From Okamejei kenojei (Eukaryota): a stretch of 64,000 bases of DNA. Positions 3,090 through 53,235 of this stretch are shown piece by piece. Each line of letters opens with the position of its first letter. The stretch's first letter is position 1. The notes under the pieces are model-generated. The model made no database searches. It had not been told where the DNA came from and saw only the letters and a program-made list of their open reading frames with translations. Position numbers and translations under genes: made by a program. Location: NCBI GenBank assembly GCA_035221665.1, contig CM069161.1, positions 2,108,001 to 2,172,000 of the forward strand, in the 5' to 3' direction.

Positions 3090-3305
3090 AAAAATACATA
3101 GTTCTGGAGTAACTCTGCGAGTCAGGCAGCACCTCTGTACAACACGGACAGGTGACAATTTGCGCCGGGGCCCTTCTTCAGAATGAAGTGTCCTGACCCA
3201 AAGAGTCGCCTACCCGTTCTCTAAAGATGCTGCTTATCCCGGTGATTACTCCAGCATGTTGTGTTTTTTTGCTCAAGATTCCAGCATCTGCCGTTCCTTG
3301 TGTCT
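3090..3305. mobile_element. Degenerate palindromic Penelope-derived mini-element
   Basis: Inverted arms (ctggagtaactc / gattactccag), central cccttcttcaga, terminal ccagcatctg..gttccttgtgtct. Confidence 0.65.
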
Positions 3306-3731: not shown

Positions 3732-4745
3732 GACACAGAATGCTGGATTAACTCAACGGGACAGGCAGCATCTCTGGAGAGAAGGAATGGGTGACGTTTC
3801 GGGTCGAGACCCTTCTTCAGACTGATGCCAGGGGAGTGGGCGGTACAGATATAGAATGTAGTTGGAGACAGTAAGACTGGTGGATGAACTGGGAAGGGGG
3901 AGGGGACGGAGAGAGACGGAAAGCAAGGGCTACTTGAAGTTAGAGAAGGTAATATTCATACCTCTGGGGTGTAAGCTACCAAGGAAAATATGAGGTGCTG
4001 TTCCTCCAATTTGCGCTAGGCCTCTCTGACAATGGAGGAGCCCAGGACAGAAAGGTCAGATTGAGAATGGGAGGGGGAGTTAAAGCGTTGAGCAACCAGG
4101 TGATCAGATAGGTTAAGGCAGACTGAGCGGAGGTGTTCAGTGAAACGATCGCCGAGCCTGCGCTTGGTCTTGCCGATATACTGGAGTTGTCACCTGGAAC
4201 AGCGGATACAGTAGATGAGGCTGGAGGAAGTGCAAGCCTCACCTGAAAAGATTGTCAGGGTTCTTGGATAGAGTTGAGGGAGGGGGTAAAGGGACAGGTG
4301 TTGCATCTCCTGCGTTTTCAGGAGAAAGTGCTTGGGGAGGGAAACAGTCTGCAAAAAGCAGAAGGGGGTGAAGATGGGAAGATGTGGCCAGTAGTGAGAT
4401 CCCGTTGGAGATGGCGAAAATGTTGTAAGATTATATACTGTATTCGACTGCTGATGGGGTGGAAGGCGAGGGCAAGGGGGACTTTGTCCTTGTTACAAAT
4501 GGGGGGAGGGGGAGCAAGAGCGGAGCTGCGGGATATCGAGATCTTAGTGAGAGCCTCATCTATAATGGATGAGGGGAACCCCCGCTCGCTAAAGAATGAT
4601 GACCTGGCATGGAAAACCCTCATCCTGGCCGCAGATGCAGCGTAGATGGAGGAATTGGAAGCAAAGGATACTCTTTGCAGGAAGCAGGGTGGGTAGATGT
4701 GTAGTCTAGATAGCTATGGGTGTCAGTGGGTTTGTAATAGATATT
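3732..4745 (-). mobile_element. Penelope-like element fragment (RT C-terminus, GIY-YIG, 3' repeat with hammerhead core), frameshifted
   Basis: Minus strand encodes IYYKPTDTHSYLDYTSTHP (Penelope RT) and F.ERGFPSSIIDEAL; the GIY-YIG DNA matches the 5818-6158 copy. Confidence 0.85.
3793..3820 (-). ncRNA. Minimal hammerhead ribozyme core (Penelope-associated)
   Basis: CTGAAGA-A-GGGTC-TC-GACCC-GAAA-CGTC: intact core boxes and stem II, palindromic ACGT stem III; stem I weak. Confidence 0.65.
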
Positions 4746-5817
4746 ATTAATGATAATGCTGACTTATTGATGGTGTCTCATAACAGGACCCAAGTATGAG
4801 GTTCGACTGTCAGTGGAGTTGGGCATTGCCTGATACTTGTATGCCATGAAAATAACACAAAAAAACATAGATGTTGGAAATCTGGAATAAAAAAGCATGA
4901 AAATATTGGAAATACTCAGCAGGATCGGCATCATCTTTGGAAAGAGAAAAATAATCAATGTTTCAGGTTAATGGTCTGAGTGTGTGCTACTTTCCATCAA
5001 CAGCTTAAATCTGTATGTTACGACTTTCTGCTTCACAATCTGTGCATTGGTCATTGACCAGTCACTACTTCTGGATCACAGCATGCTCCATCCCAATATA
5101 TTTTCTCCTATGACAATTCCACGGCCTTTTAATTTGTGATGGCACTTGCAATGATTTGTGTCCACTGCTCCAGATTTCTGCTGTTTACTATTTTTCAGGC
5201 ATTTTGAGATTCTATTCTTCCCACCAAAATATACCACTCATGGAGATCAAATTAAAGTTCATTTACCTACTACCCAATCTGACAGTTAATTACTTTGCTT
5301 CTGTACTTGAAATAATATAATATGCTGGAAACAGTCAAAAGGTCAAGCAGCATCTGTTGAAAAAGAGAAATAATGTTTTTGTTCTAAAACTCTTTGTGCA
5401 TTTATTTTTTCAAAATACTTTTTTATTACTTTTATTTTCCTGGATTTTATCAGCTATCAATAGATTGAACTCCCCAGTTCAAGTTTTAACGCTGGTCCTT
5501 ATCTTGGTCATCACAAAATACCTCAGTGAACCTCCTGATGAGCGGATTAACTTTCATACCCTATTGCCAATTTTCTAACTAGCACTTAAAGTTGAAAGGC
5601 ATTGTATTTCCTCGATATCTGAAAAATATAAACATGCTAGTTTCTCACTAATAGTTCATAAGAGCTGTAACTGAAAAATGGTTTCACCCATGCCACAATT
5701 TTCCGGCGTTTAGAGGCACTTTGTTGGCAGCCAACAATATAGCCACATCCACGTGTTTATAGTTTTGTTATATCTTTTAGTTTGGAGATATGGTGTGGAA
5801 ACAGACCCTTCGGTCCA

Positions 5818-6485
5818 AGCAGTCCTTCCAGGTCCGACAGAGGTTCACCTGCACCTCCTCCAACCTCATCTACTGCATCCGCTGCTCCAGATGCCAGATG
5901 ATCTATATCGGTGAGACCAAGCGGAGGCTTGGCGATCGTTTCGCCGAACACCTCCGCTCGGTCCGCAATAACCAACCCGACCTCCCGGTGGTTCAGCACT
6001 TCAACTCCCCCTCCCATTCCGTAACCGATCTCTCGGTCCTGGGCCTCCTCCACGGCCAGAGTGAACAACATCGCAAGTTGGAGGAACAGCACCTCATATT
6101 CCGCTTGGGGAGTCTGCATCCTCTGGGCTTGAACATTGAATTTTCTCAATTCTGTTAACCCTTGCTTTCTCCTCCCCTTCCCACCTCTCCCTCAGCCCTC
6201 GGGCCCTGGCATTCCCTCTCTCTCTATCTCTCTCCCCCACCCTAGTCACACTAGCTTCTCATTTTCACACCACAAACAGCTTACAATGGCTTGTTCCCTT
6301 TATCATCGAATACTTTTTTGCATATCTTTCATTCATTGTTCTTTATCTCTCCTCATCACCGTCTATATCTCTCGTTTCCCTGATCCCTGACCAGTCTGAA
6401 GAAGGGTCTCGACCCGAAACGTCGCCTATCTCCTTCGCTCCTTAGATGCTGCTGCACCCGCTGAGTTTCTCCAGCTTTATGTGTA
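5818..6485 (+). mobile_element. 5'-truncated Penelope-like element: GIY-YIG endonuclease end plus 3' repeat
   Basis: ORF FTCTSSNLIYCIRCSRCQMIYIGETKRRLGDRFAEH...GLN. Flanked by ccttcggtcca (5807-5817) and ccttcgatcca (6486-6496). Confidence 0.9.
6396..6423 (+). ncRNA. Minimal hammerhead ribozyme core in the Penelope 3' repeat
   Basis: ctgaaga agggtctcgaccc gaaa cgtc. Confidence 0.65.
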
Positions 6486-7029
6486 CCTTCGATCCACTAT
6501 GTCCGTGCAGACCAACAATCAGGCATACGCTAGCTTTAATCCTACCCGTACGGATAATTTATAGAAGCCAACTAACCTCCAAACCTGCACATCTTTGGAA
6601 TGTGGAAAGAAAGCAGAACACCCGGTGAAAAACAAGGAAAATGTACAAACTCCTTGCAGACAGAACCTGGTTCTCTGGCGCTGCAAGGCAGCAACTCTAC
6701 TACTACGGAATTGTGCTGCGTGTTGACTAATCCTCATGCCGAAGCTGCAAATCTGAAACAGCACAAAGTATTGGAAACATTCACCCGGTCCTAGTGCTTC
6801 CAGGTTTTTCTGCTTTTATTTTATTGTTTCTGCCCATTTTTGTTACACCTCATCAAATTTCAGAACTATTGGGATCCAAAAGCCTCAAGTGGTTAAATAA
6901 GGATCAGACGTGTCCCGTTTGCAAAGTCCTTCCTTGGCATCATCCCTCCCTACATCGCTAATATCGCCAACACCAAGCAAGGCCTTCCTCCAGCGCCATC
7001 TACTTGGCAGTGCTGTCGACCAGCTAGTA

Positions 7030-7949: not shown

Positions 7950-8177
7950 GGACAGAAAGAGCTGAATAACTCAGCAGGTCAGGTAGCATCACTGGTGAAC
8001 ATCGATATGTGATGTTTCAGTCAAGAACCTTCTTCAGACTGATTGGTCTGAGGAAGGGTCTTAATCAGAAATGTCACCTACCCATGTTCTCAGGAGACGC
8101 TGCCTGATCTGCTGAGTTACTGAAGCAAATTGTGACGTTTTGCATATTAACCAGCATCTGTAGTTTTTTGTTTCTAC
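7950..8177. mobile_element. Degenerate palindromic Penelope-derived mini-element
   Basis: taactcagcaggtcagg / cctgatctgctgagtta arms with decayed hammerhead cores on both strands. Confidence 0.7.
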
Positions 8178-8399
8178 TCTAAGATCCCATGAATGAAGAT
8201 CTTTCCAAAGTAGAAAATTCTTAGTAAGATGCATCCGTAGATAATGAGCCTGCAATGAAGTATGACTCTGTAGCAGCTTGCTACCACTTGATTAAATATT
8301 CATCACGCACATTCTATCAAAGTTGCTCTGTGTTTCAATACTCCTTTGATGGAACAGCAGGTATTTCATATACAGGAATTTCAAAAATAACATTAATGA

Positions 8400-13421: not shown

Positions 13422-15429
13422 TTATACATTTGACTCTACGAATGGTCTCTTTGGTTTTAAAGGTGATGTTGGCCCTTGTCGTGAGTCTCTGGAAAGCTGC
13501 CGATATATGCTGTCCTGATATGCCTGTGCAACAGGCAGCGTTCTGGCCACTTTTACATCTGGATACGAGGGAGTTTGACTAACTCTCTCCAAAATTTCTG
13601 CCCGGGATCCATTGGTCAGCTTCCCATGGGGGATACACATGTCCTCCTCAAGCAGGTGACCATTTTGGGCATTGTTAGTCTTATTGAAAAAAGCAATATT
13701 ACTAACTGGGGGTGGGCTGTAGGAGGCGGATTGAGGGGACATTCCTCCAGAGGAAGTGGGGCTGGTGATGACAGTGTCGACAGAGGACACAGCCCACGTT
13801 CGGCTCTGCTGGTGCATGTGGGTGTATTGCTGTGTCCGAGCTGTTTTATCTATGATCCCCATGAAAGGTGTGGTCCTTGAACGACCAGAGTCTCCAGGGT
13901 AACCCTGGGTTGGAGAGATGGGAGACTGTTCTTCATTGGATCGGCTTTCATAGGAGGGTTTTATTGGAATCTCCATCTGTTGGATGGAAGCAGAAGGTCG
14001 AAATGATGACACAACATTAGAGCTCGAAGAAAGGCTATTGTTAGAGGGGGAGAAACGAAGGCCAGTGCTTTGGGAATGGAGCAGTGGTCGGGGAGTTGGT
14101 GGGTGAGGTTTGATCTCTGGAGGATTCACAGTGAGTGCCCTCCTGATCATGTGAGATACATCTGGAGATGAAATCTGGCTAGATGGAACAGAAGATCTTT
14201 CCAATTCATGCTTGGAATGGGATACAGGATAATATGATGCAGACTGACTGCGACCAATCTGAGGGGTCTGGCCATACCTCACTCCTCCTCGAAAGGCTGA
14301 AGAAGGTCTTTGGCTGTGATCCTCTTTGGTCAACACTGATCCAGGATGTTGACAAACATTGCTGATTGCACCTGCACTCAGACTGGCCTGCACATGCTGG
14401 ACGGGTCTGCTGTCAGCTACCACTCCACCCATTACAGGCTGATATACCAGGCGACTTTGAGTAGGAGCCATATCAACTGAAGACTGATGTTTGGTACTCA
14501 TGGAGTGAGGTCCCTGGTTATAGGATCCACCAAGTATAACAACACTAGAGTGTACCGCAGAGCTGGGCTGATTGGTGCGAACAATTTGAGCTTTGGCTGG
14601 TTGTAACCTAAGTCCTTGTTGGGGTAGACCGGATGGAGGTTGAGATAATTGATAGGGTCTTTGGGCCATTTTAGACAAAGGAGACTTTGGCCTACCAGGA
14701 TGCTGGCCTATTGAGGTTTCTTGCTGATAGCGGACTGGGGAGCCAGACTGAGACCTATATACACTCATACTATCTGCAGGAGGACTAGCTCTGTACTGTG
14801 GGGCCCTACGCAGTGGAGAAGGTGGGGGACTTGACTGGTAATCTTTGTTTGGGCCACTTACAGGAGGCGGGCTAAAGCGGTATGAAGAGCCCTGATGAGC
14901 AGGGGAGGTGGGAGGAGGGCTAGGCCGATAATGAGAATTCTGATGGGTAGGAGAAATTGATGGTGATGTGGATTGGTACCCCTGCCGAGTGGGGGAGGAG
15001 ATGGAAGGATTTGGTCTGTAGTCAAAAACCTGGTGGGAGTTGAGAGGCGAGCTGGATCTGTAGGTGGGTTCACGGTGGGCCGGGGAAGGTGGTGGACTCT
15101 GGATAACAGGCTGCCCTTGGCTAGGTCTTGTTTCATTCTGTAAGCCAACAGAGACATTGTCCAACTCCTGCTCCAAATATTCCTCATCATAAATTTCATG
15201 CATTGAGTCTAAGTCTTCTTGCTGAGTCTGTTGCTGTTGTTGCTGTGACTGCTGCTGCTGCTGTTGTTGTTGCTGTTGCTGTTGCTGTGGTTGCCCATAT
15301 TGTAACGGCTGGCCATATTGCAACTGCCTGAATTCCTCTTCTACCCGTATCAACAAGCGTTGTATCTCACGGTTATTCGGGCAAAGCTTCACAGCCTCAT
15401 GCAAATCTTCCAGGGCTGCTGGAAACTGC
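13422..15429 (-). CDS. TANC2: TANC2 terminal coding exon: end of TPR, polyQ, Pro/Ser-rich tail, C-terminal PDZ-binding motif ESNV
   Basis: catgcAG acceptor at 15430-15431, phase 2 ([22 protein letters not shown]). The 660-aa ORF ends [11 protein letters not shown]-stop, the TANC2-type terminus. Confidence 0.97.
15219..15323 (-). repeat. Coding CAG/CAA polyglutamine tract (Q13-S-Q6-T-Q2) preceded by duplicated LQYGQP
   Basis: Read directly from sequence and translation. Confidence 0.95.
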
Positions 15430-15924
15430 CTGCATGGAAGAATATTGTATGTAAGATAAATATGGTCTTACTTGAGATACATCATCCATCATTTATTAAA
15501 AGTTATCTCCAATAAATTTTGGGATGTGTCCACGATGAAAAATGAACTCGCATTCCCTAGTCTCCAAATTATTTGCTTATCCACATTCTGGAGAAGATAC
15601 TATTATCATAGACTTCAACGTTTTCTCATCCCTGTTTATTTGATGCTACTTTCATTCTGCTCTGCATTCTTTTCAAATTTTCATTATTACATTTGCGATC
15701 ACAAATTAAATCAGTTAAAATTACTATTCTTATTGATTAAAATCTATTCTTTTCTTTTTCTACTTTCTAAAAAAATAGAAGTTTATAAGAATTACTTGTA
15801 ACATTCGTATACTTATTGAAATAAGTTGGTTGTGTATTTGAAAAGTTGTTATACCGTTGTTATGATGGATTACTTCTAATAAAAATATTATTACAACAAA
15901 TTAAATCAGTTAAATTTTGTTGGG

Positions 15925-21837: not shown

Positions 21838-22780
21838 CACTGCAGTGGTGCAGCTGATAGTGCCGCTGCCACATAGCACCAAGACAATAACACATAGACT
21901 AAGGTTCGATCCTGACCTCGGGTGCTGTTTTTGTCAGGTTTGCAAGTTCTCCCTGTGACTGGATGGGTTTCCTCCGCCTGCTCTGGTTTCCTGCCACATC
22001 CCTAAGATGTGCGGGTTTGGATGTTAATAGGCCTCTATAAATTGCCCCTAGAATGTTTGGAATGAACGAGAAAGTGGAATAACGTAGAACTAAGTGAACG
22101 AGTGGTTAATAGTCGGAGGTAGACACAAAAGCTGGTGTGACTCAGCGGGACAGGCAGCATCCCTGGAGAGAAGGAATGGGCGACGTTTCGGGTCAAGACC
22201 GTTCTTCAGACTGATGTCGGGGAGGGGTGGGACAAAGATAGAATGTAGTCTGAGACATTAAGACACGAGGGAGAACTGGGAAGCGGAAGGGGATAGAGAG
22301 AGAAAGCAAGGGCTATCTGAAGTTAGAGAAGTCAATGTTCATACCGCTGGGGTGTAAACTACCCAAGCAAAATATGAGGTGCTGTTCCTCCAATTTGCGC
22401 TAGGCCTCACTCTGACAATGGTGGCGGCCCAGGACAGAAAGGTCATAGTAATACAGCACAGAATGGTCAGATTGGGAATGGGAGCGGGAGTTGAAGTGTT
22501 GACTAACTGGAAGATCAGGTAGATTAAGACGGACTAAGCGGAGGTGATCAGGGGGATGGTAACACACGGCAAGGGTGGGGGTTGGGGTTGGAGGAAGGCA
22601 AGTGAGTAGATGGAGACGAGGCGATGTCTGGTGGGTGTTCAGAGAGGAGGGGGACATGAGGACTATTATATTGGTGGGGAGTAGCTGGGGTCACCTGGCT
22701 AAAAGGGGAAGGGGTCAATAGTCGGCTTAGACTCGATGGGCCAAAAGGCCTGTTTCCGTGCTGTATCTAAAACAAAACTG
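21838..22780 (+). mobile_element. HE1/V-SINE split by a Penelope insertion (pieces 21838-22116 and 22726-22780)
   Basis: A-box-like gtggtgcagctg, B-box ggttcgatcc at 21903, V-domain; tail gggccaaaaggcctgtttcc resumes after the insertion. Confidence 0.8.
22117..22716 (-). mobile_element. Penelope-like insertion with a 9-bp TSD (aatagtcgg)
   Basis: TSD at 22108-22116 and 22717-22725; GIY-YIG remnant LPVSQHFNS; hammerhead core at 22182-22209 with one stem II mismatch. Confidence 0.82.
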
Positions 22781-23595: not shown

Positions 23596-23889
<294 letters not shown>

Positions 23890-29330: not shown

Positions 29331-29667
29331 TTCAGGTGCCTTGCCATGGATGAGTGAAACTAACTCTGCTATTTTGTGAAGCTGATGTGCGTGAATTTGG
29401 AAAGGATAGAACAGTATAACGTCCGTTCCTTAATGGTGAGGTCCATCCCAACAATCTAGCAGCCATGTCCAGAACTACATCAGATCAGAAAAAATTGGGA
29501 GTAATCTAGAGGGAGTCTACTTTTTTCTGAAGCATTGTTGAATTATACTGCATATGGTATATTGCTGATGGGAAGATTTTCAAATTTAGGTACAACTAAG
29601 GCAAGTAAATAAAAGCATTCTAGGTAATTTTATCCAGGTATTAAAAGTAGTATCAGAATTAACTTGG

Positions 29668-29890
29668 GTTACACAAAAAGCTGGAGACACTCAGCGGGTG
29701 CAGCAGCATCTAAGAGGCGAAGGAGACAGGCGACGTTTCGGGTCGAGACCCTTCTTCAGACTAAAGAAGGGTCTCGACCCGAAACGTCGCCTATCTCCTT
29801 CGCCTCTTAGATGCTGCTGCACCCGCTGAGTTTCTCCAGCTTTTTGTGTAACCCTCGATTCTCCAGCATCTGCAGTTTCTTCGTTAACAC
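29668..29890. mobile_element. Young palindromic Penelope-derived element with twin hammerhead cores and a 16-bp TSD
   Basis: TSD atcagaattaacttgg at 29652-29667 and 29891-29906. Arms 29666-29756 and 29764-29854 pair with 2 mismatches. Confidence 0.9.
29732..29759 (-). ncRNA. Intact minimal hammerhead core, sense to the TANC2 pre-mRNA
   Basis: CTGAAGA AGGGTCTCGACCC GAAA CGTC on the minus strand. Confidence 0.62.
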
Positions 29891-29976
29891 ATCAGAATTA
29901 ACTTGGTGCCCAGAGGAAAAGGGAAGTGCCTTGGCCAGTTGCAGTTTGGTACTGGCACCAGCTAATCTCTGGTTCA

Positions 29977-45957: not shown

Positions 45958-46412
45958 TCTGAAGACGGGTCCTGACCCGAAACGTCACCTATCAATTTTT
46001 TCGAGAGATACAGCCTGACCCGCTGAGTTACTCCAGCACTTTGTACGNNNNNNNNNNNNNNNNNNNNNNNNNNNNNNNNNNNNNNNNNNNNNNNNNNNNN
46101 NNNNNNNNNNNNNNNNNNNNNNNNNNNNNNNNNNNNNNNNNNNNNNNNNNNNNNNNNNNNNNNNNNNNNNNNNNNNNNNNNNNNNNNNNNNNNNNNNNNN
46201 NNNNNNNNNNNNNNNNNNNNNNNNNNNNNNNNNNNCAAGGTGCACAAAAACATCGCCACACCTACATGTCTAATTATAGTTGTTTTTATATGGTCAAACA
46301 AAGTATCGGCTTTTACAAAAGATAGACACAAAATGCTGGAGTATCTCAGCGGGTCAGGCACCATCTCTGGAGAAAATGTATAGGTAATGTTCGGGTCGGG
46401 ACCCTTCTTCAG
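45958..46412. mobile_element. Two oppositely oriented Penelope mini-element arms flanking the assembly gap; intact plus-strand hammerhead core at 45959-45986
   Basis: ctgaaga cgggtcctgaccc gaaa cgtc on plus; decayed core on minus at ~46385-46411. Confidence 0.72.
46048..46235. other. Assembly gap (188 N)
   Basis: Run of N. Confidence 1.
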
Positions 46413-46655
46413 ACATTATCAGTTTTTGCAGTTTTGACCCATCTGTTAATTTAATGCAGACTATTTGGTTTTCAAATCTGAGAGAAACAAACCAAAAATG
46501 AATCTAATTAAAAAATCTGACCATATTTAGGTTTTTAATATCCCTTCCTTTGATTCAAGCACCGCTGTTTAAATAGGGAATGTGAAGTGATATTCCAGGA
46601 CGCCAAACATAAACCATGGTGAGCAACTGTTGATATTTTCAAGTCAACAGTGTTA

Positions 46656-47212: not shown

Positions 47213-47335
47213 TTGAATGTTCTCAATTCTGTTAACCCTTGCTGTCTCCTCCCCTTCCCACCTCTCCGTCGCCTATCTCCTTCGCTCCTTAGATGCTGCT
47301 GCACCCGCCGAGTTTCTCCAGCCTTTTGTGTACCC
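47213..47335 (+). mobile_element. Internally deleted Penelope 3' fragment
   Basis: Nearly identical to 6136-6190 joined to 6421-6486; most of the hammerhead core is deleted. Confidence 0.8.
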
Positions 47336-52238: not shown

Positions 52239-53235
52239 CGCCGGAAGTGGCGGCGCTGCGTGGCAGCTGCGGCTCACCTGCAGTCCGTCTGTTTTTTTCT
52301 TTTTTTTTCGTCTTTTTGTGTCTGTTTTAGTTAGAATTTTGGTTTATTAGGCTGTGTTTGTGTGGGGGGGGGGGGAGAAACAAGGTTTTAGTCTCTCCCT
52401 TCGGGGGGATGCGACCTTTTCTTGTCGTGTCCCCCGTCACCGTCTCCGTCTGTGCTGAGGCCTAATGGCGGAGCTGGTGGCCTCGGAGATGTGGCGAGCG
52501 TTCGGAGCTCCGGTGTTCCAGCGGCGGCAACGGCCCGGCTTCGGGGCTTCGGCGCTCCAGCAGTTGCTCCAGCGGTGCTCCAGCAGCGGCCCGGCTTCGG
52601 CGCTCTGGCGGCTCTCCAGCGGTGCTCCGGCAGCGGCCCGGCTTCGGGGCTTCGGCGCTCCAGCGGCTCTCCAGCGGTGCTCCAGCGGCGGCCCGGCTGC
52701 GGCGCTCCAGCGGCTCTCCAGTGGTGCTCCGGCGGCGGCCCGGCTTCGGGGCTTCGGCGCTCCAGCGGCTCTCCAGCGGTGCCCCGGCGGCGGCCCGGCT
52801 GCGGCGCTCCAGCGGCTCTCCAGCGGTGCTCCAGCGGCGGCCCGGCTGCGGCGCTCCGGCGGCTCCAGCGTTCCCGTGGTCGATCCTGACTGGGAGCTGT
52901 GGTGTTGTTCCGGCATTCCGGCAGCGGTGGCGGTGACGGCCTGGCTTCGGAGGCTCGGCCGCGGGCCTAGTGGACGATGACATCGAAGGCCTGGATTGCC
53001 TCAGTACAGAGAGGGAACAAGTAGGGGAAAAAGACAAAGACTTTAAGACTTTTGCCTTCCACCACAGTGAGGAGGTGCCTGGTGAACTCACTGTGGTGGA
53101 TGTTAAATATGTGTTTATTGTGTGTTTTGTTTTAATTTATTACATGTTATGACTGCAAGGTAACAAATTTCGTTCAGACCGAAAGGTCTGAATGACAATA
53201 AAGGAATCTGAATCTGAATCTGAATCTGAATCTGA
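52239..53235 (+). mobile_element. GC-rich non-autonomous retroelement with (tgaatc)n tail and 8-bp TSD
   Basis: TSD atctaaat at 52231-52238 and 53236-53243; 3' stem-loop cgttcagacc-GAAA-ggtctgaatg (53171-53194), then aataaa and hexamer repeats. Confidence 0.85.
52520..52870. repeat. GC-rich minisatellite of 47- and 55-bp units
   Basis: Unit cagcggtgctccagcggcggcccggctgcggcgctccagcggctctc with or without an 8-bp insert; about 6-7 copies. Confidence 0.9.

Follow-up and report, generated by a model that had tools for sequence, protein, structure and literature searches.

The window, a stretch of 64,000 nucleotides from contig CM069161.1 of Okamejei kenojei (GCA_035221665.1), carries exons of the gene TANC2 on its minus strand. 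A 92-nt exon (30074-29983, minus strand) was assigned by protein match, being identical to TANC2 at 30 of 30 residues in all three proteins compared, and its splice donor GT lies at 29982-29981. The next exon starts near 23829, which gives an intron of about 6.15 kb. The last exon (13422-15467, minus strand) encodes a glutamine tract along with a short QYGQP motif that is duplicated, and its nearest named relatives are cartilaginous-fish TANC2 proteins (89%). Elsewhere in the window a GC-rich tandem repeat (52388-53136) is open in several frames on both strands. The insertion considered here lies within the TANC2 intron, 76 nt separating the donor from the near copy of its target site duplication (TSD), as had been claimed in the preliminary description of this DNA.

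The insert proper comprises 223 bp (29668-29890) between two 100% identical copies of ATCAGAATTAACTTGG, located on the plus strand at 29652-29667 and 29891-29906. Because the last two G's of the TSD double as the end of the element, the true duplication is 14-16 bp. The insert consists of two inverted arms of 94 bp each, followed on one side only by an unpaired tail of 36 nt (29855-29890, plus strand). Both arms are pLTR ends of a Penelope-like element (PLE). The inverted arm (29666-29759, minus strand) lacks the tail and extends from a hammerhead core to the inner of two reverse transcriptase (RT) start sites, the GTGTAACCC end; the direct arm (29761-29854, plus strand) leads into the tail, a subfamily variant of which follows the 5' pLTR and precedes the ORF region in long copies. 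They differ at three positions (29688/29832, 29727/29793 and 29757/29763), and are joined at 29757-29763 by the parent's own micro-palindrome, CAG-T-CTG, at which the 5' ends of the family pile up. The minus-strand core (29732-29759), which is in the TANC2 sense, is an intact minimal type-I hammerhead with C3 at 29759 and a predicted cut after 29732. The plus-strand core (29761-29788) has an A at position 5 (29763, within the joint), that is, G5A. Stem I is 2 bp. Thus the TSD and insert length, the twin cores and the short stem I initially reported were all found again, and the 91-bp arms with two mismatches proved to be the same structure, with 94 bp and three differences once the last three pairs are counted; the unpaired tail and the existence of a multi-copy family had been overlooked.

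The minimal hammerhead anatomy that had been proposed is present, including the conserved core, stem II and the palindromic 15.2-16.2 positions. As in the minimal type-I hammerheads of metazoan PLEs (PMC4209133), we found CUGANGA and GAAA core sequences, an extra base before stem II, a G10.1-C11.1 pair and no stem III. The TANC2 insert differs from these in having a stem I of 2 bp and a stem II of 4 bp, and in that its two cores lie on opposite strands and therefore cannot dimerise in cis, each being predicted to be masked by its antisense arm. A covariance-model search, which the preliminary description had proposed as a check, gave no match to the Rfam hammerhead models at the gathering score or at E<=10 (12 hits, all hairpin-type chance matches), as is to be expected of minimal forms without stem III.

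Upstream walking from copies of the pLTR end yielded a parent unit of approximately 3.96 kb, with an RT, a CxxxxCxxC linker and a GIY-YIG endonuclease (EN). The RT matches RVT_1 with an E-value of 3e-6, which is below the Pfam cut-off, and possesses a YIDD motif; the GIY-YIG domain (E-value 1.4e-4) scores 22.5 bits and thus falls just below its cut-off of 22.6. No unbroken full ORF was present among the copies read. A pLTR-tail-ORF-pLTR layout, i.e. a partial tandem pLTR, was recognized in two of five long loci (L106, L109), and the linker lies between RT and EN in the frames of L076 and L109. From the linker the parent probably belongs to the Neptune clade; Nematis also has a linker motif (PMC8557442). 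A difference from Neptune is that microsatellite targeting is not evident in most copies here. The window itself contains a longer, non-inverted 3' fragment of the parent (5781-6493, plus strand) comprising the GIY-YIG domain, the stop codon, the 3' region and a pLTR end with its natural upstream context. Besides this fragment, the window has seven or more additional copies of the PLE end, most of them older (2092-2273, 3147-3299, 7952-8200, 3733-4700, 22123-22450, 45958-46414 and 47267-47335), some of them inverted and some with GIY-YIG remnants; that at 47267 has an internal deletion.

The ORF with RT and C-terminal GIY-YIG, the partial tandem pLTR, the inverted 5'-truncated copy with tail, and the TSD are together those of an EN+ PLE insertion, and the PLE origin originally suggested is supported by this parent. 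The published EN+ insertions, namely Pen2a_Av of Adineta vaga (PMC3846280), the scheme in Figure 2 of PMC8557442 and Penelope of D. virilis (PMC2377424), share with it the head-to-head end, a one-sided tail of 30-40 bp, the TSD, the junction palindrome and TATA/Inr-like motifs in the pLTR. Unlike these, the TANC2 insert has no ORF between its arms, both of which are only 94 nt, and its joint lies at a 5'-end hotspot that is shared with non-inverted stubs. The layout of inverted pLTR, tail and TSD is accordingly already in print, and the TANC2 insert is a stub, the shortest form of a known type of PLE insertion.

A DNA search of the genome returned 3,127 candidates. Nearly the whole 223 bp was matched, at 88-100%, by 38 of the 40 loci scored (the window included), and a TSD of their own of at least 12 bp was found in 34 of 39 fetched copies, in which the outer ends and tail are constant and the centres variable. 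The exact 31-bp axis occurs at 631 loci, with none in the reversed control; the uniqueness and TANC2-specific role implied at the outset are not supported. The non-inverted end with its natural upstream sequence gave 15,530 exact 35-mer matches, and the window's subfamily 702 exact marker matches, long ORF-bearing copies among them. In copies L001-L039 the left boundary shows the tail-less end with a variable run of 0-6 G beside the TSD, which hints that, at the inner RT start site, slippage occurs or bases are added without a template. Two composite repeat families contain a short inverted PLE end whose flanks are identical across many loci (L141, L144 and L146; L154, L156, L160, L168 and L169), and therefore some stubs have been remobilised inside other elements. 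Three same-flank locus pairs (L006/L020, L149/L150 and L249/L250) are segmental duplications containing the insertion.

Fixed outer ends and many near-identical 223-bp copies could also be produced by a palindromic, non-autonomous element resembling a retrozyme or SINE, each copy of which is made in full from a hairpin master. We regard this as very unlikely, and it is largely refuted by the non-inverted copies and the variable axes. Relative to the tail, perfect axes are centred on A in six of ten cases and on T in four (one pair being a segmental duplicate), and no fixed left-right differences were found among the copies whose arms were compared. Moreover, the subfamily is mostly non-inverted and of all lengths; its long ORF-bearing copies led us to reject it as a palindromic master. 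Retrozymes have same-strand ribozymes in direct repeats that are copied as a unit, whereas here the ribozymes are on opposite strands, the axes vary and long copies exist. A recurrent A-to-G arm variant, seen in the window at 29727, also argues against such a master, being present in 108 copies genome-wide with inverted pairs accounting for only 3 of the 30 inspected. The same counts caused us to discard hairpin-RNA editing as its source, and its excess among the best matches arose from the choice of query.

As a rule the two arms go back to a single RNA or a single source locus, since the subfamily marker was concordant between arms in 48 of 52 copies (the others being one true TC/CT chimera and three point changes) and rare variants were common to both arms in L003, L044, L045, L050 and L052. 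Judging from two copies with arms of different subfamilies, L012 and L041 (L041:1345-1685), this single source would not be absolute. Unselected copies include inverted head-to-head pairs whose arms differ in length. The family has two fixed 3' ends, one directly following GTGT(A)ACCC and the other following the tail, which correspond to the two RT start sites of the Anolis PLE in vitro (PMC11167929). In that study both target strands were cut and extended by the PLE protein, RT began at two sites, one on each side of the tail, and ribozyme cleavage was dispensable. Its element, the Poseidon PAc of Anolis carolinensis, is like ours in the two RT starts, in the extension of both target strands and in the uncut RNA template; it differs in that the ribozyme overlaps the start of the ORF, and PMC11167929 reconstructed no inverted insertions and mapped no run-off end. 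Since the copy ends match the RT start sites of the Anolis protein, priming on both strands is the route that we prefer and infer, with the palindrome likely assembled at the moment of insertion. In LINE-1 twin priming, two cDNAs from both target strands are joined, leaving an inversion between TSDs. Here, in contrast, both primers start at fixed neighbouring sites; both cDNAs therefore copy the same sequence, giving a palindrome.

Alternatively, the mirror arm may have arisen at the micro-palindrome, through fold-back or self-priming of one cDNA or from an antisense template. PMC3846280 accounts for junction palindromes by self-priming on an antisense template, and this agrees with arms that nearly always have subfamily and rare variants in common and with the use of another micro-palindrome, AGGCCT, for joints at three loci. 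However, CAG-T-CTG has a 1-nt loop and cannot snap back, and it is at the second RT start site, not at the end of the tail, that the mirror arm stops. Unequal arms with non-palindromic joints and the two chimeric copies L012 and L041 also speak against self-priming, which we consider unlikely. Joints at AGGCCT, which lies one base away from the ribozyme cut site, define another class of perfect palindromes (L175/L176, L181/L182 and L199), and L181/L182 has the tail on both arms.

To locate the other end of the copies, we inspected 100 unselected ends of the subfamily, two pairs of which are duplicates. In parent-unit numbering, where C3 of the core is 3866, 33 of these begin at 3861-3869, 16 between 3871 and 3891 (two of them mis-called) and one at the cut site, 3894; the remaining ends lie still further upstream or span gaps. 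In the genome as a whole, the base before A3863 is non-native in 3,580 copies, compared with 275 having A or G before the cut site, a count that took in only the A/G-preceded ends of one subfamily. Among 30 of these 275 viewed by eye, three were flank junctions and about 11 inverted or rearranged joints, and the rest, about half, were point changes or internal deletions. A count of D-CAGTC gave 3,485, mostly in older subfamilies and palindromes, and was left aside. With one of 100 sampled ends, the ribozyme cut site was rejected as a main class of 5' ends in this genome.

An extra G before A3863 had been predicted beforehand. It was found in 13 of 21 independent ends (the first 30 less eight copies of two composite families and one duplicate) and in 3 of 3 sampled ends, i.e. 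in 16 of 24 (p about 1e-4 against 0.28). By hand count, the base before A3863 in the first 100 of the 3,580 copies was A in 42, G in 36 and T in 22. The extra G lies outside the TSD in L142, L143, L161 and L243 and is ambiguous in L157, L164 and L167. Ends at G3864 are preceded by G in 8 of 11 cases, and here the preceding bases often repeat those before the element's second GTCT, for 6 letters in L008, 5 in L233 and 4 in L223; the bases re-copied in L233 include its own private variant. The reading of each G ahead of a 5' end as a cap mark was thus abandoned for the G3864 class, which arises at least partly by re-copying from the second GTCT. These repeats suggest slip-back at the end of the template, as opposed to a cap mark. 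Re-copied stretches at the 5' joints of L008, L223, L233, L019 and L028 resemble realignment by a telomerase-related RT.

The natural context of A3863 is YCAGT, which resembles the initiator consensus. A CTAT[AC]T motif lies at -29 to -31 in all three window copies, representing two subfamilies. The axis points of the family likely mark the 5' end of the RNA, the start and the cap being deduced from the ends of DNA copies. The pattern of 5' ends suggests run-off copies of an uncut, probably capped RNA, primed from both target strands. Perhaps, instead, the axis was set by a splice acceptor at CAG|T, or by RT stalling where the ribozyme is folded or bound by protein. The ends are indeed spread across 3861-3891, and the pyrimidine tract and CAG just before the core also read as a splice acceptor; furthermore, the intron of D. 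virilis Penelope ends at Helix I (PMC4209133). Against this, the extra G before A3863 and the re-copying from the second GTCT suggest a template end, and the extra bases contain no shared upstream exon, with TSDs within 0-8 nt. A stall or splice site therefore appears somewhat unlikely.

Under our preferred reading, run-off at the RNA 5' end, the endonuclease would nick both target strands some 14-16 bp apart, and each nick would prime RT on the 5' end of a single-source RNA that is uncut, beginning at one or other of the two internal start sites on either side of the tail. Both cDNAs would run off about 95-130 nt later at the 5' end of that RNA, the initiator-like YCAGT three bases before the core, and would be joined there, often via the CAG-T-CTG micro-palindrome. 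Untemplated or re-copied bases at the joint would give rise to variants such as G5A. In its fullest form the proposal is tentative: we consider it quite possible, though still short of probable, that the capped RNA of the element starts three bases before its hammerhead core and that its uncut 5' end is the template; that RT starts at two sites, primed on both target strands, and in each case runs off at the cap in the manner of a strong-stop cDNA; that a C is added opposite the cap, or a telomerase-style slip-back onto the second GTCT takes place; and that the products are joined into a palindrome which silences its own ribozyme.

G5 is altered at 53 axes (A in 24, C in 25 and T in 4), representing about 4% of axis cores, and in 69 of 15,599 non-inverted cores (0.44%). 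The odds ratio is 9.4, or 6.4 for A alone, for two sets that are not age-matched. The change falls on the A-centred strand in 38 of 53 cases (p 0.002), and 21 of these 38 are C, the complement of the extra G. G5A is thus probably a scar of the joint rather than the result of later mutation or selection. The preliminary description had called it the standard inactivating change; given the recurrence of altered G5 at 53 axes, with the look of joint scars, a special meaning of G5A is not supported.

The young age of the insertion that had been proposed is supported. In related organisms the contigs continue past the TSD. Those of organisms B and C run for 6,132 and 1,487 nt beyond it, and those from two samples of organism A, the organism studied here, break 21 and 10 nt beyond it. 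From these contig extents we infer that the site is empty in B and C and filled in both A samples, one of which is possibly the assembled one. Right-flank reads gave no cover past 29904 in any of the four runs, which proves nothing, and no empty allele was seen in organism A. Matches to the tail at 99% or more numbered 429 and 427 in the two A runs and one in B, so that the subfamily looks species-restricted.

Transcribed with TANC2, the insert would fold into a 93-pair hairpin. On the minus strand this fold has a predicted energy of -201.5 kcal/mol (z -26.8), and none of 200 shuffled sequences was as good. By the time the intact core is transcribed, the antisense arm has already been made. 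At all six transcript lengths tested, an open core with stem II formed comes at a cost of 40.6-43.5 kcal/mol, versus 4.6-7.7 kcal/mol in a non-inverted copy. Hence the long hairpin first envisaged as masking the ribozyme is borne out by the folding, and the co-transcriptional cleavage of TANC2 pre-mRNA suggested alongside it is unlikely. The parent's outer stem I is lost in the insert, and single minimal hammerhead cores of metazoan PLEs showed no activity as monomers (PMC4209133). On these folding predictions, the stub would be inert as a ribozyme.

A long double-stranded RNA hairpin is a plausible target for ADAR, and in TANC2 pre-mRNA the 93-pair fold is a plausible substrate of this kind. 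Given this length and an intact core in the TANC2 sense, 76 nt plus the insert from the donor, one could envisage an effect on TANC2 splicing, either by a ribozyme that is active or regulated or by an editing hairpin. This reading is very unlikely: the core is buried at every transcript length, it lacks the outer stem I and belongs to a type that showed no monomer activity, the site appears empty in two related organisms, and in two of three fold windows the insert leaves the predicted pairing of the donor unchanged, albeit in a weak and window-dependent test. We are fairly confident, by contrast, that the TANC2 insert is a young PLE stub with two back-to-back element ends and a one-sided tail between TSDs, likely made at insertion and predicted to be inert as a ribozyme; its mechanism is the reconstruction offered above.

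How inverted ends form, and what role the hammerhead plays, are regarded as open questions of PLE biology (PMC11167929, PMC8557442). The literature searched (including PMC6155905 and PMC6765202, and apart from Repbase, Dfam and subscription journals) contained no description of this family, its 5'-end hotspot, the extra G or the slip-back. The replication step that these stubs may record was not found in that literature, and their family-level footprint is offered as a testable lead. For TANC2 the insertion probably matters little, as it is one of hundreds of similar intronic and intergenic stubs. Through such perfect hairpins, host introns are steadily supplied with long double-stranded RNA, and the thousands of young stubs give base-level predictions of the RNA start, of priming on both strands, of the uncut RNA and of slip-back at the template end.
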